From: Candidatus Iainarchaeum sp.
Lineage (GTDB): Archaea; B1Sed10-29; WALL01
Length of the DNA stretch: 64,000 bases
Direction: 5' to 3'
NCBI GenBank assembly: GCA_016939415.1
Contig: JAFGGZ010000032.1
Coordinates: forward strand, 1,815 to 65,814
The notes beneath the pieces are model-generated. The model had not been told where the DNA came from. It made no database searches and saw only the letters and a list, made by a program, of their open reading frames with translations. This document shows, piece after piece, positions 1 to 31,771 of this stretch (the stretch's first letter is position 1; every line of letters starts with the position of its first letter). A program made the translations under genes and the position numbers.

Positions 1-266
1 TTTACGTCTATGTTATCTATTTTGTGGCTCATTGACCGGTAGGTTTCTTCGAGCTTGGAGATCCTGTCCTGGATAGTGAGGAGGGGGTGCTCGACCGTAG
101 GACTGTATACCTGCTCCTCTGGACGTCCGCCGCGGGTCAGAGACACGGTTTTTACGTTCCCGTAATTATTCTCGTTGTATTCTACGGTTTCATTGCTCTC
201 TAGATGCTTTTTTGAGCTTTTTCCTTCTTTTGAGAGCTGTTTTCTGAGCCAATTCCCGATGCCCAT
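1..266 (-). CDS. hypothetical protein; N-terminal fragment whose ORF runs off the window edge
   Basis: Manual translation of the minus strand from ATG at 266 gives MGIGNWLRKQLSKEGKSSKKHLESNETVEYNENNYGNVKTVSLTRGGRPEEQVYSPTVEHPLLTIQDRISKLEETYRSMSHKIDNIDVK..., open to position 1 with no stop. It was probably missed by the ORF track because no stop codon falls inside the window. No recognisable family. Confidence 0.3.
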   Translation of the reverse strand, partial: MGIGNWLRKQLSKEGKSSKKHLESNETVEYNENNYGNVKTVSLTRGGRPEEQVYSPTVEHPLLTIQDRISKLEETYRSMSHKIDNIDV

Positions 267-312
267 AGCGTGACTTATGGGTATTCTTCTATAAATTCCT
301 TTGCTTTTCGAG

Positions 313-356
313 TTGACGTGTCAACTGACGTGTCAGATGCGTCAACTGACGCGTCG
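313..356. promoter_or_regulatory. tandem palindromic operator-like element: two ~18-nt direct repeats, each containing an inverted repeat
   Basis: The unit gtgtcaactgacgtgtca at 319–336 repeats as gcgtcaactgacgcgtcg at 339–356, and GTCAACTGACG is identical in both copies with a 20-nt period. It overlaps the inverted repeat GTTGAC-gt-GTCAAC at 313–326 and the perfect palindrome GACGCGTC. It sits directly upstream of the minus-strand ORF that starts at 266. Confidence 0.5.
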
Positions 357-430
357 TCTCCGCGTGCGTAGCAGGTCGTGGTTGGGATTTGCGTGCGCAG
401 GAGAAGGCAAATCAATCGTCTGAACAGTGT

Positions 431-838
431 TCAAACAAATCTATTCCTCCCTCTCCTCGTTTTTGCAATAGTTCTCTCACTTCTTACTGCACTTCTCTTG
501 TACTCTCACTTTGTAGTTTTGTCAGTGCTTTTGTTTTGTTTCTTGCGCGTTTTCCCTCACTTTCTGCGTTCGCTTGCTGGTGCGGGTGTTCATCTGCCGG
601 GATTTCTCTCTTTCGTGCTTTTCGCGCCGCTTTCCTCACTTCTGGCTTTTTTTGTGGCTGCTTCCCTAGATCCTACACGCACTTTTCGGCTTTCTGCGCG
701 TGTTTTCTCACTTCTCTCTTTTTTGCGTTGTTCTGATGCCTTCTTGCATTGCTTTTTCCTTTGGGGTGCGTGCTGTTTCTCACTTTTTCTCCCAGCTGGC
801 GCAGCTGACTTTGAACCCTCACTTTTCCTCAACCCTCA
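431..838. repeat. ~400-nt strand-asymmetric polypyrimidine (C/T-rich, almost A-free) tract with a dispersed YCTCACTTY motif
   Basis: The plus strand is almost entirely C and T. The motif (C/T)CTCACTT(T/C) occurs seven times, near 474, 504, 555, 635, 707, 778 and 815, with irregular spacing of 30–80 nt. The ORFs predicted here on either strand are low-complexity translations; the minus-strand one is K/R/E-rich. Confidence 0.6.
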
Positions 839-969
839 ATGCATGTGCAAAATATACTTTGGTGAGTATTGTTTGTATAAGATTCTTTTCACAATAGGTT
901 TTTGATAGTATACTATCCAACAAATCGTTAAGCTTATATTCTACTGAACATATACATTCGGCTAGGGTA

Positions 970-1257
970 ATGCTCATGGATTCGAGTTTCTTTTTACGGG
1001 AGAAGCCGGTCAGGGTTTTAATAGCCTTGTCTGACAAATCTAGGTCGTGGTATGCTCATTTGCTTTCGAAAGAGGTTGATGTGACTTACGCTCATCTTAT
1101 CAATGTTTTGGATGCGCTTTCTGTCGCGGGGTTGGTTTCTTTTGAGCGTGAGGGCCGCATAAAGCTTGTGAGGATTACTGATGACGGTTTGGAGCTTGCT
1201 AAGGACTTTGAAACTGTTGTTAGGCGCTTGTCAAAGCTTTCCAAGTCTGGGAAATAG
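970..1257 (+). CDS. small winged helix-turn-helix DNA-binding protein (ArsR/MarR-like)
   Basis: 95 aa. The pattern SWYAHLLSKEVDVTYAHLINVLDALSVAGLVSFEREGRIKLVRITDDG fits a recognition helix followed by a beta-hairpin wing. An AT-rich region at 840–965 containing TTATAT lies upstream and may be the promoter. Confidence 0.5.
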   Translation: MLMDSSFFLREKPVRVLIALSDKSRSWYAHLLSKEVDVTYAHLINVLDALSVAGLVSFEREGRIKLVRITDDGLELAKDFETVVRRLSKLSKSGK

Positions 1258-1289
1258 TCTTTGTCTTTTGCCCAAACGTTTTGGGTTTT

Positions 1290-1760
1290 TTATATGCCGA
1301 GGGCGATGACGGTCATGAGGAGGAGTTCTTCCTCTTCTTCGAGCATGTCCTGGTAGTGGCCACTGAGGCCTTTGCCGATGCTGGATAGTATGGGGACGTA
1401 AACGCCGAGGGGGGCGATTTTCCCTATTTCTTTGTTGTCTTTCAGTATTTTGAATTCTTGCTGGAGGATGGTTTCGTGTTCGTGTATGTCGAATAGTTTT
1501 TTGGCTTTGCGGTATACGTCGAAGTGGCTCATGATGCCGAGGCGTTCTTTGATTGAGCCGATGTACTCCCCGTTTTTGTAGATTTTTGCTGTGCGGACGA
1601 TGAGGCCGGAGCGGATTATTGAGTATTTTGCGTTGAACCACTTGACTTCAAGTATGTCTTTGTAGAACGGCCTGTTGATTGAGATTAGGTCTGTTTGTTT
1701 TTTCCTGCGCACTCTCAGCTGTGCACCGGTCAGTCCAGAGAGTAGCTCGAATTCGACCAT
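1290..1760 (-). CDS. hypothetical protein
   Basis: 156-aa ORF with normal GC-rich codon usage and no recognisable motif. Confidence 0.35.
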   Translation of the reverse strand: MVEFELLSGLTGAQLRVRRKKQTDLISINRPFYKDILEVKWFNAKYSIIRSGLIVRTAKIYKNGEYIGSIKERLGIMSHFDVYRKAKKLFDIHEHETILQQEFKILKDNKEIGKIAPLGVYVPILSSIGKGLSGHYQDMLEEEEELLLMTVIALGI

Positions 1761-1785
1761 GCGTTATGCAACTCGGTTTCGGTAT

Positions 1786-2184
1786 TTATTGCTTGCGTTC
1801 TGTTTGCCAGCGTTTGATGAAGCTGTTCCAGATGTCCGTCATTTCCCTGCACCGGTTGCCGAATTGTTCGCTGAGCATCCACTCGCCTTCGCGCTTGGTT
1901 ATCATGCCGGCGTCGCGGAGTTTGTTGAGCATGGTGTAGTACTCTTGGTGTGTGCATGAGAGGCTGCGTTGGGTTTCTGCCCAGTCCTTGTCGGGGATGC
2001 GTTTTTTTTCTATGATGGTGTAGATGAAGGCTTCTGCTTTTTTCGCGAGTTCGGGTTTGCGGAAGTACAGCCCCTCCAGGATTGTTCTCAAGTCCGGTAT
2101 CCGCTCTCTGGCGCGCATCTTGATGGTGGTTTCGTATTTCGTCATTGGGGGGTCACCTGATTGTTTCTTTGGGTCGGACCGCAC
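1786..2184 (-). CDS. hypothetical protein, possible wHTH (start may instead be the internal MTKYETT)
   Basis: 132-aa ORF. The C-terminal stretch HQEYYTMLNKLRDAGMITKREGEWML resembles a winged-helix motif. Confidence 0.35.
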   Translation of the reverse strand: MRSDPKKQSGDPPMTKYETTIKMRARERIPDLRTILEGLYFRKPELAKKAEAFIYTIIEKKRIPDKDWAETQRSLSCTHQEYYTMLNKLRDAGMITKREGEWMLSEQFGNRCREMTDIWNSFIKRWQTERKQ

Positions 2185-2527
2185 GCTTCCTCGTGTTCTG
2201 GATTCTTCGCGCGAGTTCTGCGGTGGGTTGCAGTTCGTTGATTTGTGTTTCCAGTTCTCTACAGAGTGATTGCAGTTCCTGGATTCGCTGCAGGTTATCC
2301 CTTTCGGGCGTCATGCTCTTGAGCGATCCCACCACCCTCAGGCGCAGCCGCTCCAAATCCCTGTGCAGCTCTCCTGCCCTCAACACGTTTTCCATGTCTG
2401 TTGCATTGGGGTCTGGGGTGTGTTTGTCTGCTATCCTGCCGAGCTCGATTCCGAGTTCGTCGAGTTCGTCCATGGCTCCGCCGTTTAGCGGGGGTCTCTT
2501 TCCCAGTCGTTTCCCACCCCCTCCCAT
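2153..2527 (-). CDS. hypothetical coiled-coil protein
   Basis: 124-aa ORF with a heptad-like stretch LQRIQELQSLCRELETQINELQ. Confidence 0.3.
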   Translation of the reverse strand: MGGGGKRLGKRPPLNGGAMDELDELGIELGRIADKHTPDPNATDMENVLRAGELHRDLERLRLRVVGSLKSMTPERDNLQRIQELQSLCRELETQINELQPTAELARRIQNTRKRAVRPKETIR

Positions 2528-2799
2528 TTCCTCTCAAGCAGGTCAAGTTTCAGTATGGTCGACGCGTTGCTCTTCTCTGTTGATAGGAACCGATGCGCTT
2601 CGTTTACCAGCGATTTGTTCGCGCCCGCGTTCTCCAAGGCTCGTACTATTTCTTTTATGCGACCAAGGTGCGCTTCGTGCTGTCCGATTATTCCCATGCC
2701 TTCACCAGCTGTGTTTTTGGTTGTTGTTCTTTGGGTGCGGCAGGCAATATAATTGTTATAGTTGATGTCCAACCGGGTCGTTTGGTTGTTTTCCAGCAA
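2485..2799 (-). CDS. hypothetical protein
   Basis: 104-aa ORF that overlaps the previous ORF slightly; no motif recognised. Confidence 0.25.
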   Translation of the reverse strand: MLENNQTTRLDINYNNYIACRTQRTTTKNTAGEGMGIIGQHEAHLGRIKEIVRALENAGANKSLVNEAHRFLSTEKSNASTILKLDLLERKWEGVGNDWERDPR

Positions 2800-2964
2800 C
2801 CACTCCCGGGTTTGCTTCTTATCTTAATGCTGGGTTTGTCGGCTCCCCGAAGCTTGTTTGCGCAGGAAATGCATTGAGGATTGAGCATCCCCGCCGTCTA
2901 TTATTACTTGATGCCTTAATGCCTCGCGTAATTTTATAAACTCTGCGTCCGTAAGTATGTTTGC

Positions 2965-3861
2965 ATGCCACAAGAGAAGAAAGCGTCGAAGGGCCGGTTC
3001 TCGTTTTTAGGCGCGCCTTTGCGCAGCGGGGAGAACATTGCGTTCATCAAGGCGGGCGGCTACAAGTCGGTTTACGGCGTTGGCCCGGTGGTTAAGCTGT
3101 TGCCCCCCAAATCAGAGCGCCAGCGGTTGCGTGCCGGTGGGCGGAGGGTCGATTTGGTTCCCAGCATTCTCATGAATCGCGTCATCAAGGTGTTTGATCG
3201 GGGCGAGGAGGCCATGGCTCGCTCTGTTGACAAAGAAGAGCTCAAGAGAGAGCAGCACTTACTTGCGCGTTTGAGGGACCTTGTGCCGATGCCCCGCACG
3301 CTTGCCAGGGTTTTCCCAGAGGAGCATGGGGATCCGCGTCATGGCCGCGTTGACATTGATGAGTATGCTGGAGTGGATTATGAGGCGAGGTACCGCACGC
3401 TCGCTGACATGAAGCAGCCGAAGTTCATGAAGGATCTTGAGGAGATCGTGGAGATGGCTTTGCGGGCCAAGGCATCGGCCGGCGTTGTTATCGACATATC
3501 GAAGCTCGATAACTTTTGTGATGGTGTGTGTCTCAACGAGGTGAGGAAGGGTCACAGCGTTGAATTCGTTCCTTCTCCTGAGAAGAAGATTTACGTGGAC
3601 AAGGACACTGCCCAGATGAGCTTTACCACGCGTTCTCCACGCCCTTATGAGAATGCGAACCAGCAGCTGGCTTCTTACCTGGGTCATTTGGTGGGCACGA
3701 TTCTGGAGAAGGAGGCCAAGGAGGCAAAGAGCCGCACTATCTCCCGCGGTGCCGAGCGGTTGGTTGTGAAGAAGCTTCACGCATTCTTCCCCACTGAAGC
3801 CAAGGAGCTGGAGAGGCAATTCAAGCGCGTGCTTGACGACTACAAGGAAGAGCATAAGTAG
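2965..3861 (+). CDS. hypothetical protein with protein-kinase-like motifs (putative atypical kinase)
   Basis: 298 aa. The N-terminal loop IKAGGYKSVYGVGPVVKLL resembles a glycine-rich P-loop with a following Lys. VVIDISKLDNF resembles the HxD-LK-x-x-N catalytic loop and is followed by DG. The assignment is not secure from reading alone. Confidence 0.35.
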   Translation: MPQEKKASKGRFSFLGAPLRSGENIAFIKAGGYKSVYGVGPVVKLLPPKSERQRLRAGGRRVDLVPSILMNRVIKVFDRGEEAMARSVDKEELKREQHLLARLRDLVPMPRTLARVFPEEHGDPRHGRVDIDEYAGVDYEARYRTLADMKQPKFMKDLEEIVEMALRAKASAGVVIDISKLDNFCDGVCLNEVRKGHSVEFVPSPEKKIYVDKDTAQMSFTTRSPRPYENANQQLASYLGHLVGTILEKEAKEAKSRTISRGAERLVVKKLHAFFPTEAKELERQFKRVLDDYKEEHK

Positions 3862-3915
3862 TGCTACCGCACGTTTTTTAAACCCGCTTTACCCATTATC
3901 TACCGGTGATTCCAT

Positions 3916-4377
3916 ATGTTTTTCGCAGTGTCGGCCGCAAAACCCCGCGGAGGCGGTGAAAGGCCCCTGAGCCGCAGACGGATTGAGGAGGCAGTCCGCA
4001 GCAGTCCAGAAGCGCGGTTGGCGCGGCGCCGTGCTTACCTTAATGTGCAAGTGGATTCACTGAATGATCACATAAACCAACTCTTGGTCTTGCAAGAGCC
4101 TCCCAAAGCAGAAACCCTTGAAGAGCGAACACATCGGGAGGCGATATTCAAAGCGCATGCTGAACAGGTTCTCAGCCCGTTCGATCAGGCAAAGAGTTCG
4201 CTCGAGAGGATGAATGATCACCTTGCAGGCCAGGGGACCGCAGTGCCCGTCCACATCACAGCCGAAGTCCGATCCGCGGGAAAAGCGATAGCTGAAGCAG
4301 AGGCGTACCTGACGCGCTTGAGAAGCGAGAACCCGGAGCTTTTCAACTACATTTTGCGCCAGCGCAGGGGTCTGTGA
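3916..4377 (+). CDS. hypothetical protein (helical)
   Basis: 153-aa ORF in a GC-rich coding frame; no family recognised. Confidence 0.35.
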   Translation: MFFAVSAAKPRGGGERPLSRRRIEEAVRSSPEARLARRRAYLNVQVDSLNDHINQLLVLQEPPKAETLEERTHREAIFKAHAEQVLSPFDQAKSSLERMNDHLAGQGTAVPVHITAEVRSAGKAIAEAEAYLTRLRSENPELFNYILRQRRGL

Positions 4378-4387
4378 CGGCGCTTCC

Positions 4388-4807
4388 ATGCCGCGGCCTG
4401 GCATCCACAAGCTCGTCGCGCGTCACGCAGAGCTCAGCGAACGCCTTCACCAAGAGATTCTCCAGAGTTTCGAGGAAGGCGGCCTCACGGGCGATCGGTA
4501 CAAGCCATTCCAAAGCCTTAGGGAAGAGCACAACAGCGTGATGAACTCTATCATGCAGCAGCTGAAGAAGTCGATTCCCAAGAAAAGTCTTTCCAGCGCC
4601 ATCCCCCTGCTTTCATTGCTGGAGATGGAGCACGCGAACAGTCTCTCGCTTGTCGATGAGGTGCTGAACAATAACATGGATTGCGAGACCTACGACCGCG
4701 AGCACGCGAAGCGATCAGAGATCCTGGGCAGAGTGCTTTCCACTCTGCTCGAAGAAGCCGGCTGCAAGAAGCAAGGCCGGAAGTTCGGTGGCATTGGGTA
4801 TTCCTAG
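4388..4807 (+). CDS. hypothetical protein (helical)
   Basis: 139-aa ORF immediately downstream of the previous gene; no family recognised. Confidence 0.35.
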   Translation: MPRPGIHKLVARHAELSERLHQEILQSFEEGGLTGDRYKPFQSLREEHNSVMNSIMQQLKKSIPKKSLSSAIPLLSLLEMEHANSLSLVDEVLNNNMDCETYDREHAKRSEILGRVLSTLLEEAGCKKQGRKFGGIGYS

Positions 4808-5175
4808 ACCACGCGCAGCGTCGCCTTGCACTCTTCTTTTTTCTGCGATTTGTCGAAGCGCTCGTCGTGCTCCCTGACAACCACGCTCATGTCGTACATG
4901 CCCGGCTGTATGCGGCGCTTTCCGAACACTGTGAATACCGCGTCTTTGGCCCGGTTCGGCTCTACATTTGCTATGCGCACGCGCTTCTCCTTCATGACGA
5001 ACGCCGCGTCGAAACCGAGTTCTGAAGGCAGTTTCAGCGTCACTGAATAGTTCTTGTTTATCGCGCTCTTGTTCCTCACTTCCACGTGCATGACTACGGG
5101 TTGGTTCTCTGCCGCCATCATGCGAATCGGCGTGAAAGAGGTCCTGACTTGCATTGTGTCGAATTCCTCTGGCAT
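4804..5175 (-). CDS. hypothetical protein, beta-sandwich-like
   Basis: The ORF spans 4804..5199; the start is probably MPEEFD at 5175 or MQVRTSF at 5154. Alternating hydrophobic and charged residues (PVVMHVEVRNKSAINKNYSVTLKLP) suggest an Ig/CARDB-like fold. Confidence 0.35.
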   Translation of the reverse strand: MPEEFDTMQVRTSFTPIRMMAAENQPVVMHVEVRNKSAINKNYSVTLKLPSELGFDAAFVMKEKRVRIANVEPNRAKDAVFTVFGKRRIQPGMYDMSVVVREHDERFDKSQKKEECKATLRVV

Positions 5176-5232
5176 TTGATAGCACCTCGCTAACAGCAAC
5201 CTTATTATGAATGCATTCCATTAAATAGTTTT

Positions 5233-5697
5233 ATGATTCCAGAGTCCGAACTCATCGACGGGACGTACGTGCTGAGGGACATGCGCCTCACGAACGAGGT
5301 CCGCCTCACGAAGCAGAGCCTGCTGCGCTGGCTCGCTCTCGCTCTGGGTCTGCTGAGCCCCGAAGAGTCGCGCATGGGTTTCGTGCCTGTCATGGATGCG
5401 TTCCTGTCCTTCCAGCTCGCTGAGTCCCGCAGCCCCACTGTAAAGGATCTCGCCGAGCGCAGCCAGCAGCCGGAAAAGGCAGTGCGCTACCACATGAACC
5501 GCCTTGTATCCACGGGCCTGGTGCGCTGCGACAAGCGCAGGTACTGCTTTGTCCGCGACTCAGCCAGCGATGCCCTGAACCTGCCCAAAGCCTTCAGGGA
5601 GCACTACTCTGACAGGCTCGTGAAAAGCGCTTCAACAGTAGAGTCTGCGTTGTCCGAGCTGCAGCGCGCTTACTCGTCAAGGAGCAACCAAGGCTAA
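5233..5697 (+). CDS. winged-helix transcriptional regulator
   Basis: 154 aa. TVKDLAERSQQPEKAVRYHMNRLVSTGLVRCDKRRYCF has an ArsR/MarR-like HTH-plus-wing pattern. The gene is divergent from the gene at 4804–5175 across an AT-rich promoter region. Confidence 0.5.
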   Translation: MIPESELIDGTYVLRDMRLTNEVRLTKQSLLRWLALALGLLSPEESRMGFVPVMDAFLSFQLAESRSPTVKDLAERSQQPEKAVRYHMNRLVSTGLVRCDKRRYCFVRDSASDALNLPKAFREHYSDRLVKSASTVESALSELQRAYSSRSNQG

Positions 5698-6217
5698 ATG
5701 CACGCAACAACCCCCGGAAACACCGCTTATGAACGCCGAGCAAAACGCGCTGGGTTTGGTTACAGACTAACTTATCCCTACCAGAAAACGAATAAATCGA
5801 TATTAAAAAAGCAAAAGACAATTATGAGTCCATTATATTAAGCTAATCCTTTTCGGAGCTCATTTTGCTCGTTAACGCTATTCTCTCTGAAAAGTATGTG
5901 CAACAACATCTATTGTCTATTGTATCATTACAATGATATACTATGACAAATATACAACTCAAAAACATCAATTTACCATATATTTTCTGGAATGCATTTT
6001 TAAAATCCTTTGCTCACTATCCCCCTCCCTCCGAGCAGCAGTGGAATGGGCATCAATAGCCTGTGCTGCTTGTTCCGCGCGTGTTTTTTGTTTCGTGTTC
6101 TTGTTGGCTGTCCTCAGTCCTCTGTTCAGGCTGCGGGTTTTTCCACACCAGCACGCTTGTATGATTTTTGCACAATTTTAGGGGTGTTGGTTTCACCCCC
6201 CGGAACTCTAGCTAATC

Positions 6218-24501: not shown

Positions 24502-25701
24502 TCACTCAGCGAACCGCTTCTGGACTGCTGACAGGACTTTTTCCGCTGGGAACGATAGTCTGATCAGCCGAGTCTGCCCGCGGATGCCCTTGCCGGACAG
24601 TTCTGTTGTTATGAGTCCCAGCATCTCGAGTTCGTTCAGGTACTCCCTCACCCAGCGGGCGCTGCGCGCGTTCCTGTGCCATTGCTTGCAGACGGTCTGG
24701 TAGCGCTGGTACACTTCCCCGCTGAATAGTGCGGGGTCGTTGCCCCCTCCGCCGAGCCGCTGGTATTTGCCGCCTTCTTCTGTGAGCGTTGCGACCGAGA
24801 ACAGGACAATGCTCTGCTGGTCAGGGAGTGTTTGTATGAGTTCCAGCACGATGTCTTCTTCGACTGCGTTCCTTGCGTTCTTGACGTCCTCGTCCGTGAC
24901 TCTCTTGTTCTGTTCGTCGGCTATCTCTCCCGCTTTCAGCAATAGTTTCAGCGCGTACCTGGCGTCCCCGCTTTCCTGTGCTGCGTAGGCGCTGGCCAGC
25001 GCTATCGCGGAGTCTTCCACATACCCTTCCTTGAAGCCTTCGACTGTGCGCTCCTTGAGTATGGCTTGCAGTTGCTCTGCGTTGTAGGGTGCGAACACCA
25101 TTTCTTCCTGGCAGAGCGTGCTCTTGCTGCGCGGGTCGAGTTTTTCCTTGAAGTCAATCTTGTTGGATATTCCTATGAGCGCTATGTGTCCTTGCAGGAG
25201 GTCGTCGTTGCTGCGGGTGAGGGAGTACATCAGCTCGTCCAGGTCTTTTGTCTTGTCTATCTCGTCCAGGACGACTATGAATGTCACTGCCTTCTTCGCT
25301 ACTTCTTTCAGCAGTCTTTCGTAGAGGAATGTCGCGGGGTGGCCCATGAACGATTCTTCTGGGCAGAGGCGTTCCGCGCACTTGAGCAGGACTTGGTACT
25401 TCGTGTTGTGGATGCGGCAGTTGATGTACACCTGTTCCACCGGCGCTTCGTATTTTTGCGCTGCTTCCCCCAGCCTGGAGAGCACGTGTTTGGTGGATGA
25501 GGTCTTTCCCGTGCCAGTCTTTCCGTAGACGAATATGTTGTTAGGCCTTTTTTGCGAGAGGGATGGCGCTATCGCTTTCATTATCCGGGTTATCTCCCCG
25601 TCCCTGTACGGCAGGTGGTCGGGTATGTAGTGGGGGGATAGGACGTTCCTGTCCTTGAATATGGTCGGCCTGCTCATCTCTTGCTCGAAAATATCTTGCA
25701 T
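24502..25701 (-). CDS. cdc6: Orc1/Cdc6 replication initiator (AAA+ plus C-terminal winged helix)
   Basis: Start set at MQDIFEQEMSRPTIFKDRNVLSPHYIPDHLPYRDGE, a typical Cdc6 N-terminus. Walker A is VYGKTGTGKT. Walker B is VLDEIDK, with sensor motifs and a C-terminal wHTH. The ORF track extends the frame to 25887 with atypical N-terminal residues. Confidence 0.9.
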   Translation of the reverse strand: MQDIFEQEMSRPTIFKDRNVLSPHYIPDHLPYRDGEITRIMKAIAPSLSQKRPNNIFVYGKTGTGKTSSTKHVLSRLGEAAQKYEAPVEQVYINCRIHNTKYQVLLKCAERLCPEESFMGHPATFLYERLLKEVAKKAVTFIVVLDEIDKTKDLDELMYSLTRSNDDLLQGHIALIGISNKIDFKEKLDPRSKSTLCQEEMVFAPYNAEQLQAILKERTVEGFKEGYVEDSAIALASAYAAQESGDARYALKLLLKAGEIADEQNKRVTDEDVKNARNAVEEDIVLELIQTLPDQQSIVLFSVATLTEEGGKYQRLGGGGNDPALFSGEVYQRYQTVCKQWHRNARSARWVREYLNELEMLGLITTELSGKGIRGQTRLIRLSFPAEKVLSAVQKRFAE

Positions 25702-25807
25702 GAATCCACCGCAAGGGTTTAATAAAAGTACTCTCATAAGTATGGGTGCTGTTAGACTTCTACTATTGATGACAATGGTACTTAAAATATGTTGAGGAGG
25801 ACAAAGC

Positions 25808-26176
25808 ATGGTAGGGTTTTTGAAGAACATCTCTAAGCGCTTGGGAAGCACTTCAGAGGAAGCGGATGTCGATGAATACTTGGACACACTAGGGCTCGAG
25901 TCTGATTTCCTTCAGGAGGAAGCAGACGTTTGGGTGAAGCCTTACGTGCTGCAGGATGTCTCTGATGATTCAGCGATCATCGCCGACTTGCACGCTGGTA
26001 ACGTGGTGCTGATAAACATTGAGCCGCTGTACAAGCGGAACACCATCAAGCTGAAGCAAGTCATAAGCGAGCTCAAGAGCGCCGTGAAGAAGCTCGACGG
26101 CGACATGGTGCGCCTTACGGAGTACAAGATCCTTGTTACGCCGAAGGGCATGAAGGTCGCTAAGTCGAGAAAGTGA
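25808..26176 (+). CDS. sepF: archaeal SepF (FtsZ membrane anchor, DUF552)
   Basis: 122 aa. The N-terminal amphipathic helix is MVGFLKNISKRL. The DUF552 core is KPYVLQDVSDDSAIIADLHAGNVVLINIEPLYKRNTIKLKQVISELKSAVKKLDGDMVRLTEYKILVTPKGMKV. Confidence 0.7.
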   Translation: MVGFLKNISKRLGSTSEEADVDEYLDTLGLESDFLQEEADVWVKPYVLQDVSDDSAIIADLHAGNVVLINIEPLYKRNTIKLKQVISELKSAVKKLDGDMVRLTEYKILVTPKGMKVAKSRK

Positions 26177-26183
26177 ATGACGC

Positions 26184-26954
26184 ATGCTCTTGGACGCGCC
26201 CGCTTTGAGGCTGCAGGTCGATACGAACACTGCTCTCGGTATTCTCGAGGGCATCCTCAAGGAGCGGCACTGGAAGCAGTTCAATGTGTCCAGTGCCACC
26301 CTTGTATACACGCCTTTCTGGTTCTTCAACTTTGACGTGTACGAGGAGGCTGAGGGTCGCGCTCAGACATACTCCTCTCAGATGTGCATGAATGGTTTAA
26401 CTGGTGCGCTGGAGCCTGTCTTCATAGAGATTATGAAGGAGATACCGACTGTTGAAGAGAAGGAGATAACTCACAGCATCCAGAACGAGATCAAGCGGCT
26501 CGTTATCCAGAAGGATGAGGTGAAGTCCCTCGCTCAGATAAAGATCGCTGGCCAGATGGGCGTTCAGAAGGACATCATTACTGTGAGCGGCGTTCGCCTG
26601 GTTTACATGCCCCTCTGGGTTTTTTGGGTCGAGGTCGGCCGCAGGACGAAACGCATCGACATGGATGCGATCAGCGGGTCGCCGCTGAACATCCAGGATG
26701 TCCCCACGCGGGAACGCGGCACAATGGAAGTCACCATGGACATGCTCGAAGACTTGAAGCGGCCTGAGAACTGGGTTGACTATTCGAAGCGCGCTTTTGA
26801 CTGGAGCTTGGGTATCGCCGGGCTTGCCGGCCGCGCCGCAGGCTCTGGGGGCGGAGGCGTGATCAACTGGGTCATGACCACGACGATGGGTAAGTACGCA
26901 GCGCTCCTCGTCTTTGCTGCCATACTCGTGATTTACATCTTATCCTTCAAGTGA
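26184..26954 (+). CDS. hypothetical membrane-anchored protein with an internal duplication
   Basis: 256 aa. Two related segments are present: ATLVYTPFWFFNFDVYEEAEGR... and VRLVYMPLWVFWVEVGRRTKRIDMD.... A Gly-rich linker leads to a C-terminal TM helix, YAALLVFAAILVIYILSF. The gene lies 8 nt downstream of sepF. Confidence 0.4.
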   Translation: MLLDAPALRLQVDTNTALGILEGILKERHWKQFNVSSATLVYTPFWFFNFDVYEEAEGRAQTYSSQMCMNGLTGALEPVFIEIMKEIPTVEEKEITHSIQNEIKRLVIQKDEVKSLAQIKIAGQMGVQKDIITVSGVRLVYMPLWVFWVEVGRRTKRIDMDAISGSPLNIQDVPTRERGTMEVTMDMLEDLKRPENWVDYSKRAFDWSLGIAGLAGRAAGSGGGGVINWVMTTTMGKYAALLVFAAILVIYILSFK

Positions 26955-26990
26955 GCTTCGTATTGGGATAGAACCGGATCTGCGTCCGGG

Positions 26991-29900
26991 TCACATGAAC
27001 TCTGCCAGGCTGAACTGCTTGGCCTTGTCGTTGACGAACACTGAGTTTATGTCTCCCTCAACGATCTTGAGTCTTTGTTTCATGTAGTCGCTTAGTCCGT
27101 ACTCATCCGCGATGCGTTTCGAGACTTCCAGGTACTTGCGCACGCTGCCTTCAGCGATCGTGAGGATGATCTTGCCGCCGCACTTGTGGCATTTGCCTAT
27201 GAGCGGCACGCGCCTGTACTTCGCGTTGCAGTCAACGCATCTGAACTTCTGCTCGCCGAACGCCCTCAGGTTGCCGTATATGTCCCTCAGGAAGTGGCTG
27301 TTCAAAAGCCTTTCCGCCTCGTCTTTCTCGTCCACTGACCGGAGTTTCTTGCCGAGTTTCAGCTGAGCGTTGACCTTCTCCTCCATCTCGCCGAGCGTGG
27401 TATACGTTGACCTGGTCACGCCGTTGTCTATGGCGGTCGTGCCGTGCGTGAACCCGAACCCGTCGTATTGCCGGTCTGTGCCGAGCCTGCTTTCCACTGT
27501 TTCTATTTTGAAGTCCCGCGGGTTCAGGAGTTCGTGGCTTCTCCGGTAAAAATCAAGGGGGTACTCCCTGGTTGTTTCCAGTTTGTGCACCTGGTCGTCT
27601 ATTTGCATTGGGTCTATCGCAAGCGTGAGGACGAGGCAGGCATCCATCTTGCCACCGCGGGACGAGGGGAGGTACTTTTTAGAGAAGTTGAGCAGCGCAT
27701 CCAGCAGGAACATGCATCCGTTCTCGTCGCCGTCACAATCCCTCCTTGTGCTGGCGTGGAAGTACGGGTGGGCGTAGCACGCGCGGGCCTTGCTGAATCC
27801 GATTATGCGGCCAAGCACTCCGGCGCTGGTGTGCGGCGCCAGCCCTATGATGAGGTGGCCGACGAGGTCCTCTTTCGTCCGGGCGTTGTAGAACTGCTCG
27901 AGGCCGTACAGTTGCGTGAGCATCTCGTCCAGGGCCTTTGTCACGCGCACGAGGTAGTCGACGCCGGTTTCTGCGAGTATGACGTCCTGCGGGAGGAGCT
28001 CCACGATCTGGTTCTGACTCACCAGGTCCTTGCCTTCGTGGTCGTGAGCGTATCCCAGTTCCTTGAGTCTTTCCACGCTCGTGCCTATCTCCTTTGGTGT
28101 GAAATGCGTGGTGGGTAGGTTGGTGGAATCGAACCGGACCGTGCCGTCTTTGAATATGTACACGCCGTTCCTGGATCGGATTATGCCTTTCTCGAGCGGC
28201 TCGAACATCTTGCCCCCGCTCATCATTCCCTTGACTCCTTTTATCTTCGGGTCTGGCTTGCCGACGTTTTCCATGGCGTGATCCATCATGTCCTTGATGT
28301 TGACCACGCTCTTGTCGTATGCTGTGGGCCTGACGCCGCAGATCGGACACTCGTCTTCTGTCTCCCTGCCGCATTTTGGGCACACGAGCAGCGGCTTTGT
28401 GCGTTCGCCGCAGTCCATGCACTTGTAGGAGAACATGACCTTGCCGCATTTCGGGCACTTCATTCTCGCGATTTCCACGCTGATGGTTTTCCTGTCGTAT
28501 GCTTTCATGATTGAGCGCGTGTTCCCACCGTAGTTCCCCACAGGGAACAGTATGTTCGGCGCAGGCTTCATGAGTCTCTCCTTTGCTTTTTCGGGCCTGC
28601 CCATCCTCGTGCCCAGGTATACGGGCGCCTTCACTTTTATCACATACGGACTGAGCTCGTTCACGAGCGTCATCGGGTCGCCGGCGTCTATCTGTTCCAC
28701 TGCTTTCGCTGAGTCAGGAACTGCCAACGTCTTTTTGAGCGCTTCCCAATCATCCCCTTCTATCACTATTGTGTCTTCCCTCACTGTGTGTGGCACGAGC
28801 AGCTTTTCGAGCGCGCGCTTCTGCGGCCCGGTCTTCATGTCCGTGGCGAGCCATTGCACGAGTTCCCTCAGTTCTGTCACTGTCACGTCGCTGTAATTGT
28901 AGACGTACCTGGGGTGGAGGGGCACTCCGTACTTCTCTGAGTACTTGACTGCTTCTTCGAAGGATACGCGGTATGGGTCTTCGCACAGGCCGCCCGCGTC
29001 CTTGACTTCCAGCGCCCACCACTCCTCGCACCATGCTGACGGAACGATGGGGTGATTTGTTTGCAGGAAGTCGTTGAATGATACGAGTATGTCGCCGTTG
29101 AAGAGCACTTCTTCTGTCGCGGGCCTGAGCTGGTTGGCTTGTTCCTCGCTCTCCACTCGCACGACGCTGCCGTCCCTCAGCCTGATGACCGGCCCTTCGA
29201 TGGTGTCTACTGGGACTACTGTCATGCCCTTGCCGGGTCTTTCTACTTTGAGTTGCGTGCCGATGGCGGGGAACCCGTCGAGTGCCGCCATGGCGGCCGG
29301 GTGCATGCCTTTGGCCATGAGGCCATTGTTTCGGCTGCGGCCGTATCTCAGCCTGAACCCTCCTGGCCTGGAGGGGTAGGAGAAGATGGGGCGGCCCGCA
29401 ACGATGTCGCGGAGGAACTTGTCCAGCGGCTCTATTTTTCTCGCGCCTTCCTCTTCCTTTCCGACTTTTATGAACGACTGGAGCCACCCCCACTTCAATT
29501 TCATCTCGTTCGAGATGCGCAGGATCTTCTGGGCCTTTTGTGCGATGCCTTCTGCCACGACCAGGCACGCGCCGCCGCGCACTCGATTGGTTGGCACGCG
29601 CGGTATGTCTTTGTGGACGTCCACTTCCTGTTCGAGTGTTGGGTCTCCGTTGATGCAGACCGGGCAGTTGCGGATGACTGTCCTGACTTCGTCGTCGCTG
29701 GGCTTGTACTGCAGGTGTTCCACGTTGTGGTATATGTTTATCTCTTCCACGTAGCGCTCGACTTCCGTTTCTGTCGGCCTGTATTCGCTGAGGCCAATCT
29801 TTTGTCTGGCGTAGTCACCGATGAGGCAGGTTATTGCTTGGCCTGTGCCTCCAGCGCTCCGTATGGGTCCTGAGAAGTATATGCTTAGGTACTCGCTTCC

Positions 29901-30293
29901 GTCTGGGTTCTTCTCTATCTTCACGTCTGCGACGCCCTCGATCGGCGCTGCTACGACCGCTTCAGTGTATAGCGCCAGACCTGTTCGGACGCATTGTTCT
30001 GCCTGGCTTGCCTTGTCGTGCTGTCCGTACTTGCCTTCGCAGATTTTGTCGCATATCGCGAGGAGGGTTTGGTCGCGGCTCATCGTCTTGAGGCATTCAC
30101 GTATGTCCTTGGCCACTCCCTTTGGGCCGATGAGTCCCTCGACACGCGCGCTGAGGTCTTCTGCGAGAGGTATTTCGACTTCTGTTTCCGGGTCGATGCC
30201 TATTGCGCGCGCCTTGCCGGCGATTTCGTAGACTGCGTTGGCTTTGGCTTCGAGGTTTTTGTAGTAGTCGAGCACGCGCGCTGATGCTTTCAT
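26991..30293 (-). CDS. polC: DNA polymerase II (PolD) large catalytic subunit DP2
   Basis: About 1100 aa. The sequence matches DP2, including the conserved Zn-binding modules CPKCGKVMFSYKCMDCGERTKPLLVCPKCGRETEDECPICG and RCVDCNAKY...KCHKCGG. Start set at MKASARVLDYY at 30293, which forms an ATGA overlap with the DP1 stop. The ATG-defined ORF extends to 30419. Confidence 0.95.
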   Translation of the reverse strand: MKASARVLDYYKNLEAKANAVYEIAGKARAIGIDPETEVEIPLAEDLSARVEGLIGPKGVAKDIRECLKTMSRDQTLLAICDKICEGKYGQHDKASQAEQCVRTGLALYTEAVVAAPIEGVADVKIEKNPDGSEYLSIYFSGPIRSAGGTGQAITCLIGDYARQKIGLSEYRPTETEVERYVEEINIYHNVEHLQYKPSDDEVRTVIRNCPVCINGDPTLEQEVDVHKDIPRVPTNRVRGGACLVVAEGIAQKAQKILRISNEMKLKWGWLQSFIKVGKEEEGARKIEPLDKFLRDIVAGRPIFSYPSRPGGFRLRYGRSRNNGLMAKGMHPAAMAALDGFPAIGTQLKVERPGKGMTVVPVDTIEGPVIRLRDGSVVRVESEEQANQLRPATEEVLFNGDILVSFNDFLQTNHPIVPSAWCEEWWALEVKDAGGLCEDPYRVSFEEAVKYSEKYGVPLHPRYVYNYSDVTVTELRELVQWLATDMKTGPQKRALEKLLVPHTVREDTIVIEGDDWEALKKTLAVPDSAKAVEQIDAGDPMTLVNELSPYVIKVKAPVYLGTRMGRPEKAKERLMKPAPNILFPVGNYGGNTRSIMKAYDRKTISVEIARMKCPKCGKVMFSYKCMDCGERTKPLLVCPKCGRETEDECPICGVRPTAYDKSVVNIKDMMDHAMENVGKPDPKIKGVKGMMSGGKMFEPLEKGIIRSRNGVYIFKDGTVRFDSTNLPTTHFTPKEIGTSVERLKELGYAHDHEGKDLVSQNQIVELLPQDVILAETGVDYLVRVTKALDEMLTQLYGLEQFYNARTKEDLVGHLIIGLAPHTSAGVLGRIIGFSKARACYAHPYFHASTRRDCDGDENGCMFLLDALLNFSKKYLPSSRGGKMDACLVLTLAIDPMQIDDQVHKLETTREYPLDFYRRSHELLNPRDFKIETVESRLGTDRQYDGFGFTHGTTAIDNGVTRSTYTTLGEMEEKVNAQLKLGKKLRSVDEKDEAERLLNSHFLRDIYGNLRAFGEQKFRCVDCNAKYRRVPLIGKCHKCGGKIILTIAEGSVRKYLEVSKRIADEYGLSDYMKQRLKIVEGDINSVFVNDKAKQFSLAEFM

Positions 30294-31771
30294 GCACCCA
30301 CCTCTTTGTCGAAGTGCACGATGCTCAGCTTTGTGGCGTGCAGGTCCAGTATGGGGAGTATGCATGGCGTCGGGTGGTGGCCTTTCTGCAGTTGGTACGG
30401 CGTCTGTTTCTGCCAGCATCCCGCGTTCACGCCGATGACTCCTTTGTACGTGATGTAGCCGTTCCTGTGCACGTCAGCGACTTGCATGACGTCCGGGACG
30501 CGTTCTATGACCATATAATCCTTTTTTTCCGGGGTGATCGGCGGGCGTTCGCCGTAGACTGGGTGGAGGTGCCTCCTCTGCAGGTACTCCACGCACACCT
30601 TTTCCGGGTGGACGTAGTCCGTTGTCTTTACGTGCGGCACGATGCTGTGGATGCTTGCGCCGTGGTACAGCAGGAACTCAACGCCGTGGAGCGAGCAGTA
30701 GCCGGGTGATGACATGAGGTTCACGTTGTCGAGTGAGGTTATGTTGTTAGTGACTTCATTACTCATTGCGGGCTGCGGGTCGGCGGTGCGCACTGCGTCG
30801 TGGTTTCCGGGGGTGAGCACCACTTCCACGTAGTCAGGGAGCTGTTCGAGGTATTGCTTGAATTGCCTGTATTGCTCGAATATGTCTGTGGTTTCGAGCT
30901 CGTATTCCTGGTTGGGGTATATGCCCACGCCGTCAACCAGGTCTCCTGCGATCGTGATGTACTTTATCCTGCCTGCGAGCTCTCTCTGTTTTGCGTTGCC
31001 GTGCCTGCCGTGCATCCAGTCAATGAATTTCTCGAAGTTCTGTCGCATGAACAGCAGTGAGCCTATGTGCGTGTCGCTCATCATTCCGACGCACAGGCTT
31101 TCTTCTGTTCTTCTCGGCTGGTGGAGGGGTATGTCCGGCTTTATGATTGCGTTGGCGATGAATAGTTCCCTGCTCATTTTTCCGTCGATGGCTATGACTT
31201 CGTCGTTGATGACGTTGTGGGATTCTTCGATGAGTTGTCTGTCGCTTTGCGGGACGAGGACGTTGATGGTGTCGGTCTCGTCTTCCAAGGATATCAGTCT
31301 GTGGCCGTTCTTGGTGGTTTTGATTTCGCTGACCATGCCTATGATGCGTACTTTCTCGCCCATCCCCCGCCTCTTGACGTGCTCGATGTCTCTTGCCGGG
31401 CCGCGTTCCTTGATTATGCCGGACAGCCTGCGGAAGCGGTCCCTGAAGTGTTCCACGAAGTCGTCGACCTTGCCTTCGCACATTGACTTGCCTGTGACGT
31501 TGAAGTCTTCGAATTCCTTGAATTCTGCGTCGTGTTCTTTGGCGAGGGGCTTGAAGTCCGTGTGCTCCACGACGATTTTCTGTTCCGGCAAGAACTTGGG
31601 TTCCGCATCTATGAGTTCTTGTTTCGTGACGACGGGTCCGCGGATCTTCGGGAGTATTTCTTCGCAGTACTTGAGGGGGGTGGGCTTGAGGATTACATGG
31701 CCGAGGCCATCAGAAGACAGCAGCATCCCCCGTTCTCTGAATAAGGCTAGTATTTCTTCTCTCATTGCCAC
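30290..31771 (-). CDS. polB: DNA polymerase II (PolD) small subunit DP1 (calcineurin-like 3'-5' exonuclease)
   Basis: 493 aa. It has an N-terminal OB-fold region. The metallophosphatase motifs are MSDTHIG, GDLVD, GNHD and GH. The gene is co-linear with DP2. Confidence 0.92.
   Translation of the reverse strand: MAMREEILALFRERGMLLSSDGLGHVILKPTPLKYCEEILPKIRGPVVTKQELIDAEPKFLPEQKIVVEHTDFKPLAKEHDAEFKEFEDFNVTGKSMCEGKVDDFVEHFRDRFRRLSGIIKERGPARDIEHVKRRGMGEKVRIIGMVSEIKTTKNGHRLISLEDETDTINVLVPQSDRQLIEESHNVINDEVIAIDGKMSRELFIANAIIKPDIPLHQPRRTEESLCVGMMSDTHIGSLLFMRQNFEKFIDWMHGRHGNAKQRELAGRIKYITIAGDLVDGVGIYPNQEYELETTDIFEQYRQFKQYLEQLPDYVEVVLTPGNHDAVRTADPQPAMSNEVTNNITSLDNVNLMSSPGYCSLHGVEFLLYHGASIHSIVPHVKTTDYVHPEKVCVEYLQRRHLHPVYGERPPITPEKKDYMVIERVPDVMQVADVHRNGYITYKGVIGVNAGCWQKQTPYQLQKGHHPTPCILPILDLHATKLSIVHFDKEVGA

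Follow-up and report, generated by a model that had tools for sequence, protein, structure and literature searches.

The stretch of DNA analysed here (the window; 64,000 nt, numbered along the plus strand) derives, according to its database entries, from a Candidatus Diapherotrites / Iainarchaeum metagenome-assembled genome (MAG), a DPANN archaeon. Near its left end, a ~400-nt tract of skewed composition carries seven same-direction copies of a short sequence box and fills the 709-nt gap separating two divergent winged helix-turn-helix (wHTH) genes. This array of boxes, its conservation and its probable function are our subject. Logan contig L001, which is identical to the window, adds 584 nt on the left side, where one of the two genes runs off the window. 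The genes, the tract and its boxes are placed as follows:

1..266, minus strand: 5′ part of the gene for a 226-aa protein; start codon at 266-264; runs off the window, full gene at 170-850 of L001
431..838, minus strand: the tract, with 7 same-direction boxes, 13 runs of four or more A (A4+) and zero T4+ runs
475..483, minus strand: box 7, GTAAGAAGTGAGAGAAC
504..512, minus strand: box 6, CTACAAAGTGAGAGTAC
555..563, minus strand: box 5, GCAGAAAGTGAGGGAAAAC
634..642, minus strand: box 4, GCCAGAAGTGAGGAAAG, the weakest copy
706..714, minus strand: box 3, GAGAGAAGTGAGAAAAC
778..786, minus strand: box 2, AGAAAAAGTGAGAAAC
817..825, minus strand: box 1, GGAAAAGTGAGGGTTC at 828-813, at the predicted transcription start of promoter P2 (see below)
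976..1257, plus strand: gene for a 93-aa ArsR-like winged-helix protein (the small wHTH), highly conserved across the lineage

The plus strand of the tract consists of 178 T, 120 C, 71 G and 39 A (n = 408; A 9.6%, T 44%), compared with window means of 17.6% A (sd 3.4) and 26.6% T. Over all 400-nt windows of the 64 kb, both the minimum for A (8.5%) and the maximum for T (44.5%) fall in the tract, so that the A-poor stretch of ~400 nt described in the initial annotation is indeed a compositional extreme, one that the other intergenic regions of the window do not share. The accompanying label, polypyrimidine, was an overstatement: pyrimidines make up 73% of the tract and G 17%, and no uninterrupted pyrimidine run exceeds 15 nt, an ordinary length for a window that has 17 such runs of at least 14 nt. 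Over the interval between the first box and a point 60 nt short of the 226-aa start codon, purines make up 67% of the minus strand. Because the whole plus strand is already A-poor (31 of 32 2-kb bins), the tract exaggerates a genome-wide bias. The region 5760-6140 comprises a 300-nt gap at ~28% GC and then an A-poor, T/G-rich stretch (6060-6140, including CCGCGCGTGTTTTTTGTTTCGTGTTCTTG) that resembles the tract spacers but carries zero boxes.

All seven reported copies of the plus-strand 9-mer YCTCACTTY are present, starting at 475, 504, 555, 634, 706, 778 and 817; the positions first given were off by ≤2. One further exact match occurs at 5074, making 8 in the 64 kb where ~2.3 are expected for the whole window, and within the window scores of at least 15 on a position weight matrix built from all loci (see below) are confined to the tract. 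The spacings between the seven copies are irregular (29, 51, 79, 72, 72 and 39 nt), and Tandem Repeats Finder (TRF) detected no tandem array in the tract and the operator at 314-355 alone. The earlier statement that this is neither an array of clustered regularly interspaced short palindromic repeats (CRISPR) nor a simple tandem repeat therefore holds, with spacings of 29-79 nt and no array found by TRF. A repeat search placed several box copies within longer, weakly similar units of up to 43 nt that lie 72-79 nt apart.

We compared the window with ten further independent loci (L003/L004, L005, L006, L008/L013, L009, L010, L011, L012, L014 and L015), giving 11 loci in all; ~17 clusters of the family exist, and L143 was left out of independent testing because its upstream sequence is too short. 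In independent Iainarchaeia MAGs and contigs, the gene order AF_0843-like / 156 aa / small wHTH (opposite strand) / gap / 226-aa wHTH / TraB-PrgY / PRC is conserved at 42-50% protein identity, and the gap measures 0.5-0.8 kb in every locus. Every gap carries 4-11 copies of a 13-16-bp box, (A)AAAGTGAG(R)GTT(CT), on the strand of the 226-aa gene (minus in the window). Weight-matrix matches number 69 in the 11 gaps, all 69 in the same orientation, and just 7 in the flanks (62 kb). Scanning the window and its relatives for the motif, as had been proposed, thus reveals a box array conserved across the lineage.

The sequence between the boxes evolves differently. L008 and L014 share ~70% nucleotide identity in their genes and have unalignable spacers, yet the boxes persist, which argues that both the boxes and the composition are under selection. 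With 60-81% purine in 11/11 loci, the motif strand also has many A4+ runs; its GC skew is positive in 10/11 loci, A exceeds T in 11/11, and T4+ runs are missing from this sense strand in 7/11. In L008 and L014, a palindrome has boxes on both sides, and boxes directly adjoin the 226-aa gene's TATA box, an interleaving that fits DNA sites at a promoter. Further, in L008, L012 and L014 the boxes run on into the first ~110 coding nt of the 226-aa gene, where they are read as K-S-E codons (L008 4033-4115, L014 1280-1350, L012 3970). The variable K/E-rich N-terminus of the 226-aa protein in some relatives has the composition of translated tract. The spacers of L009 hold GC-rich perfect palindromes (e.g. 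GGCCGCCAATTGGCGGCC), repeated just upstream of boxes at 3300-3330 and 3600-3630, and several loci have shorter palindromes or hairpins ahead of boxes, such as CAGCTGCGCCAGCTG at window ~790-804.

Distances between successive boxes cluster at 27-29, 38-40, 49-51, 58-61, 70-73, 80-86 and 89-93 nt. For nearest-neighbour spacings, the Rayleigh statistic is 0.51 at 11.2 nt, where the phase is offset by half a period, and 0.46 at 10.1 nt, where it is close to 0. Against 2000 jittered controls (maximum 0.47, 99.9% quantile 0.44), the value at 10.1 nt exceeds the 99.9% quantile and that at 11.2 nt exceeds every control. The all-pairs box spectrum has one dominant peak, at 10.0 nt, which 0.1% of jittered nulls reach at any period; when loci are tested singly, the 10.0-nt period is significant in 5/11 (the window included) and the 10.5-nt period in 0/11. 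AA dinucleotides have a mean power over the 11 tracts of 5.1-5.4 at 10.0-10.1 nt, compared with 1.5 in 274 control windows, and still 2.6-3.2 when the boxes are masked. A 10-bp register of boxes and A-tracts is a property of duplex DNA. In a 10.0-bp register, the boxes would face the same side of the helix, provided that the helical repeat is locally ~10 bp; that the register is 10.0 and not 10.5 bp hints at wrapped or overwound DNA.

Within the window, the tract belongs to the 0.3% of 420-nt windows with the strongest AA periodicity, and the neighbouring region 1000-1600 stands higher still. A wedge-model estimate of curvature places the window maximum at 159-309 and part of the tract, 450-650, in the top 1-3%. 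The predicted curvature maximum spans the 5′ end of the 226-aa gene and its promoter, and the strongest 10-bp TT/AA periodicity (1000-1600) spans the small wHTH and 156-aa genes; together these suggest that periodic DNA structure extends past the tract.

The array is set among three candidate promoters, recognised by their TATA-like boxes, and a separate palindromic operator:

948..959, plus strand: TATA-like box of putative promoter P1, ACATATACATTC, ~23-25 nt upstream of the small wHTH start codon; contains invariant T57
848..860, minus strand: TATA-like box of putative promoter P2, AAAGTATATTTTG, with an A-rich 5′ flank resembling a transcription factor B recognition element; points into the tract
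286..298, minus strand: TATA-like box of putative promoter P3, GAATTTATAGAAG, ~27 nt upstream of the 226-aa start codon
312..356, no strand assigned: palindromic operator cluster of ~4 tandem ~11-nt units, TGACGYGTCAAC (TRF: 314-355, 11-12-nt units)

The geometry at the end of the array near the small wHTH gene is nearly fixed. Box 1 lies 152-156 nt from the start codon of that gene in every locus having both, and an alignment of 8 loci over this interval contains a single 2-nt indel. Box 1 also lies 27-30 nt downstream of the conserved TATA-like box of P2, which holds the invariant positions A150 and T156 of the alignment. Given the distance from TATA box to start site that is usual in archaea, transcription from P2 is predicted to begin in the A-run of box 1 and to read into the tract. 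On the other side of the gap, the P3 TATA-like box is found at the same distance in 11/11 loci. With a TATA-like box ~25 nt (P1) or ~27 nt (P3) before the start codon, both genes would give leaderless mRNAs.

The operator cluster holds the palindromes CGTCA-GT-TGACG and GTTGAC-GT-GTCAAC, and relatives have palindromes of other sequences (TTACGTAAnnTTACGTAA, AACGCTTTnnAAAGCGTT) at the same place ahead of P3. In L006 and L011, box 1 is itself a 6-2-6 palindrome (GTGAGA-GT-TCTCAC) that shares the geometry of GTTGAC-GT-GTCAAC, which suggests that two related wHTH proteins act as dimers, each with its own half-site specificity. Recognition helices are invariant in both wHTH proteins, as is the box core, so that covariation cannot assign protein to site. 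The initial annotation grouped the tract with the small wHTH gene and the palindromic operator nearby, and this is supported. A hairpin at box 1 (GUGAG-AGUU-CUCAC) was considered as a conserved element and rejected, since it occurs in only 2-3 loci. The 226-aa gene has operator words (GACGYGTCA, CGTCA-GT-TGACG) ahead of it, inside its coding sequence and just past its stop codon (window 312-356; L001 95-190 and 395-470), the coding copies reading QLTRQ / ELTQLTH. With operator words at both ends, the 226-aa gene is bracketed by the presumed operator.

Both flanking genes encode ArsR-type winged-helix domains. In the 93-aa protein, the putative recognition helix TYAH[L/M] is nearly invariant across the lineage. 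The AlphaFold model of the 226-aa protein (mean predicted local distance difference test score 79) begins with a disordered, K/E-rich stretch, continues with a conserved helix (VEHPLLTIQDRISKLEE) and a single helix of ~80 residues, and ends in an ArsR/SmtB-like winged helix. Compared with PDB folds, the model matches SmtB/CzrA-type wHTH proteins; generic ArsR/SmtB wHTH matches were all that this fold search returned, with no initiator or partition homologue ranking high. Homologues of the 226-aa protein are scarce, numbering 8 in a 90%-identity cluster database and ~17 full-length cluster representatives among 1.84 billion proteins.

Conservation across the lineage, a single orientation, a fixed promoter geometry and a 10-bp register together point to a protein-DNA array. 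As in known phased multi-operator systems, specific repeated sites stand at integral helical turns, overlap promoters and lie beside a regulator gene. The boxes, their orientation, register, conservation and geometry and the non-coding nature of the tract are observed directly; protein binding, the candidate binders, promoter activity and transcription we infer from them. We put the probability at about one half that a helically phased, unidirectional array of wHTH-binding boxes in the tract governs the divergent promoters, the tract itself being probably transcribed as well, into a purine-rich RNA. In this scheme, one of the adjacent wHTH proteins would bind the boxes, the candidates being the 93-aa ArsR-like protein and the 226-aa coiled-coil wHTH protein; recognition of the box by either is a prediction. 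A higher-order nucleoprotein complex would assemble across the divergent control region as the bound copies contact each other along or around the DNA. This complex would cover the P2 start at box 1, reach the promoter of the 226-aa gene and set the activity of both, and the separate palindromic operator would provide classical dimer control. P2 would transcribe the minus strand into a ~420-nt purine-rich RNA without oligo-U terminators, either a by-product or a part of the regulation; the purine richness of one strand, the absence of oligo-T runs and the P2 box suggest that the tract is probably transcribed too.

Several observations weigh against this interpretation. The 10.0-bp register was discovered and tested on the same 11 loci, and it is weak in four of them (L010, L011, L012, L014). 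The nearest-neighbour spacings are described equally well by a period of 11.1-11.2 nt offset by half a period, although this period does not fit the all-pairs spectrum. The predicted static curvature of the tract is only moderate. DNA sites alone do not explain why the spacers are purine-rich on one strand in 11/11 loci, or why T4+ runs are missing in 7/11; the purine bias, the missing runs and the conserved P2 box fit transcription. Finally, distant homologues of the small wHTH (49% identity; L137-L142) have short upstream gaps with zero boxes, and they neither identify nor exclude the 93-aa protein as the binder. These distant genes lie between a Memo-like gene on one side and a XerA-like tyrosine recombinase gene on the other; in L141/L142, a class-Ic (Glu/Gln-type) tRNA synthetase gene replaces the Memo-like neighbour.

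Possible, though unlikely, is that the functional product is RNA. P2 would then drive a ~420-nt non-coding minus-strand RNA, or a long leader of the 226-aa mRNA, purine-rich and largely unstructured, whose AAAGUGAG boxes bind, and thereby titrate, either an RNA-binding protein or a complementary RNA, as sponge RNAs such as CsrB/RsmZ do. The polarity of the array suits this idea: 69/69 boxes lie on one strand, and the conserved TATA-like box 27-30 nt before box 1 means that a transcript would begin with a box. The sense strand is purine-rich everywhere and usually lacks T4+ runs, and therefore archaeal oligo-T terminators, whereas the antisense strand is full of such runs. In the window, a hairpin with a T-rich tail follows the last box:

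406..438, minus strand: terminator-like hairpin of 10 pairs, then the T-rich tail TTGATTTGCC; directly after the last box, a possible minus-strand 3′ end

This hairpin is the strongest local helix in the RNA fold, but in most other loci a counterpart cannot be made out clearly. In predicted folds, the accessibility of the box cores slightly exceeds that in controls with shuffled spacers (Stouffer z 2.7 under a loose null), a signal that is weak under a strict null (z 1.9). Conserved secondary structure was not found, the fold z-score of the minus strand being just -1.76. Searches of the window returned no Rfam family at gathering thresholds, the tract giving a chance-level U6atac match (E=0.49), and no tRNA. 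Against an RNA-level function stands the 10.0-nt register of boxes and AA dinucleotides over hundreds of nucleotides, which is a signature of duplex DNA; we know of no property of single-stranded RNA that predicts it. Further, DNA palindromes and a TATA box lie among the boxes, and in some loci the boxes enter the coding region. The purine-rich minus-strand RNA proposed in the initial annotation thus remains plausible as a transcript, given the TATA-like box of P2, the absence of T4+ runs and the hairpin, whereas a role for the boxes at the RNA level is not demonstrated.

We consider it improbable that the tract is a site of replication or segregation, whether an iteron-type (secondary) origin, with the adjacent AT-rich 130 bp as its unwinding element, or a parC/ParR-style centromere bound by the adjacent wHTH protein. 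The layout is suggestive: direct, same-direction phased repeats (69/69 in one orientation, in a 10.0-bp register), an AT-rich stretch and a palindromic operator of the autoregulatory type at a winged-helix gene match the iteron-plasmid and parC arrangements as these are generally known. In addition, no long intergenic region with repeats adjoins the cdc6/orc1 gene of the window, and the uniform T>A skew leaves no skew switch inside the window to the right of the tract. The genes expected of such a system are absent from the locus, however, where no Rep, primase, helicase, ParA or SegA gene was found and the wHTH proteins are small and generic; instead of the two winged-helix domains of an iteron Rep protein, the 226-aa protein has one wHTH and the 93-aa protein one. 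The locus is chromosomal, with conserved synteny, and has no match in plasmid, phage or viral collections. Archaeal origin recognition box (ORB) elements flank the unwinding element in inverted orientation, whereas all boxes here face one way on one side of the AT-rich segment. In the flanks of 9 related loci, neither AT skew nor GC skew reverses consistently across the tract, although these flanks are short and the comparison has low power. In 'Forterrea', the one complete Diapherotrites genome analysed for skew, the origin adjoins cdc6 (PMC5905446). In the window, cdc6 lies 24 kb from the tract (24502-25887).

The region 24502-31771 places cdc6/orc1 beside a sepF-like gene and the PolD DP2/DP1 genes. 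No ORB-like repeats were found near cdc6 or in the other long gaps of the window and, as no long gap adjoins cdc6 either, a chromosomal origin is not evident in the window. The AT skew of the plus strand runs from -0.03 to -0.38 in 31 of the 32 2-kb bins, regardless of gene orientation, and the GC skew is positive to ~26 kb and flat beyond; the strand bias is like that of one replichore, without a switch at cdc6. The search for an origin of replication at the tract was thus negative, with no skew switch in the window or in the flanks of the 9 loci and no ORB-like repeats near cdc6. A mobile-element or prophage origin of 1-5700 is excluded by the chromosomal synteny and by the lack of any BLAST match to plasmids or phages or any protein match to viral contigs. 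A 14-mer scan of viral contigs gave 120 single chance matches and no locus with at least three clustered boxes. A CRISPR array is excluded by a box of 13-16 nt (CRISPR repeats measure at least ~23 nt), by spacings of 9-220 nt and by spacers that share a biased composition; among the locus proteins, Pfam, NCBIfam and PADLOC searches found no Cas proteins and only weak wHTH-domain similarity to Csa3/CARF-type regulators.

Taken jointly, a purine-rich regulatory RNA that lacks terminators and titrates a nucleic-acid-binding wHTH protein through its 4-11 boxes (an archaeal counterpart of sponge RNAs, possibly acting via co-transcriptional R-loops) or a lineage-specific iteron-like replicator or centromere without Orc1/Cdc6 adjacency is a tentative alternative that we regard as possible, if doubtful.

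A non-B DNA structure, either an H-DNA triplex or stable R-loops formed by a purine-rich transcript, is very improbable as the function of the tract. The strong purine/pyrimidine asymmetry of the strands, with positive GC skew in 10/11 loci and A > T in 11/11 on the motif strand, would favour it, as would a likely promoter (P2) that points into the tract, and purine-rich RNA forms very stable hybrids with pyrimidine-rich DNA. H-DNA, for its part, requires long uninterrupted homopurine/homopyrimidine mirror repeats, with a minimum length of about 15-20 bp. In the tract, pure runs reach at most 15 nt, a length common in the window, and there is no long homopurine mirror tract, so that the triplex suggested in the initial annotation finds no support. 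Asymmetry alone, moreover, leaves the conserved box, its fixed position and the 10-bp register unexplained.

That the tract encodes a K/R/E-rich low-complexity protein, the minus-strand 80-aa open reading frame (ORF) at 590-832, possibly extended by a frameshift, is hardly credible: minus-strand ORFs of 80 and 51 aa do read the boxes as K/R-S-E, gene callers put short ORFs in the tract of two relatives, box spacings modulo 3 (28/16/14 for residues 0/1/2) show a mild excess of multiples of 3 and the N-terminus of the 226-aa protein in some relatives has a like composition with boxes as K-S-E codons, but within each locus all three frames contain boxes, and every box brings a TGA into one frame, so that no long ORF survives, zero ORFs are common to the loci, the spacers are unalignable, gene calling on the identical Logan contig leaves the tract empty and there is no Pfam match. 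The lysine-rich protein gene that had been proposed can thus be set aside, and with no antisense 80-aa ORF conserved among the relatives, the tract is non-coding. We conclude that the tract is a conserved non-coding control region, and most likely a multi-site docking platform for protein that is also transcribed, rather than a gene or a triplex element.

Beyond the array, the region 1290-5697 clusters small proteins without a family (156, 124, 298, 153 and 168 aa) with further wHTH proteins, namely an AF_0843-like protein of 119 aa and a 154-aa HTH_24 protein. Partly syntenic in relatives, it is a lineage-specific, regulator-rich island. The rest of the window is ordinary chromosome, with genes for Lhr, FttA, a proteasome subunit, Cdc6, a SepF-like protein, PolD, TyrRS, TGT, SecDF and ThyX.

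DPANN archaea are uncultivated, and to our knowledge their gene regulation is essentially unknown. Against this background, the locus offers a sharply defined, lineage-conserved cis-element, with a box of 13-16 bp, strict polarity, a 10.0-bp register and a length-invariant promoter module of ~150 bp, and its probable protein partners are encoded beside it. If proteins do bind as proposed, the array would clearly exemplify, for archaea, a long nucleoprotein assembly with many sites on one face of the DNA; if it acts instead as an RNA or a replicator, it would represent a new class of element for archaea. In either case, the box array can serve as a signature for finding the locus in new Iainarchaeia genomes.

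The literature that we searched on the motif, AF_0843 and Diapherotrites origins does not describe the element. Its layout varies on known kinds of array, direct-repeat winged-helix operators and iteron-like arrays, and it is restricted to a small DPANN lineage. Among known systems, OmpR/PhoB-type boxes and Lrp arrays share with it a winged-helix gene beside the target, non-palindromic same-direction sites, spacing by integral helical turns and several sites that overlap or adjoin promoters. The present array differs in its extent (4-11 boxes over 300-700 bp, with gaps of 1 to ~20 turns), in a register of 10.0 bp where those systems have 10.5-11 bp, and in its strand-asymmetric, purine-rich spacers; its predicted binder is an archaeal ArsR-like wHTH protein without a receiver or Lrp domain.

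Iteron origins (pSC101, R6K, F, pPS10) likewise combine phased direct repeats, an AT-rich segment and a winged-helix gene with an inverted-repeat operator. Here, by contrast, the repeats are chromosomal, irregularly spaced and embedded in lineage-wide synteny, no Rep initiator with two winged helices is present, the operator palindrome is unrelated to the box sequence and the flanks have no skew switch. Archaeal oriC regions (ORB/mini-ORB, Orc1/Cdc6) resemble the locus in having a long intergenic region, repeated directional elements and an AT-rich stretch; the short CAC-T core of the box is only loosely like a mini-ORB, and the box has neither the ORB dyad nor the G-string, keeps to one orientation and lies 24 kb from orc1/cdc6.

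The bacterial sponge RNAs CsrB/RsmZ also display dispersed short motifs on one strand at irregular spacing, a promoter-like element and fast-evolving surroundings. The tract has no Rfam match and no CsrA-like partner, its motifs are not demonstrably placed in hairpin loops, its box spans 13-16 nt compared with 4-5 nt, and its 10-bp register would be unexpected for RNA. In layout, a further parallel is the Sal-box array of eukaryotic ribosomal DNA (TTF-I, T1-T10), in which about ten same-direction boxes occupy a non-coding spacer at irregular intervals and act directionally on polymerases. That system belongs to another domain of life, uses other proteins and accompanies rRNA genes, none of which adjoins the array described here, and the likeness is therefore an analogy of layout only.

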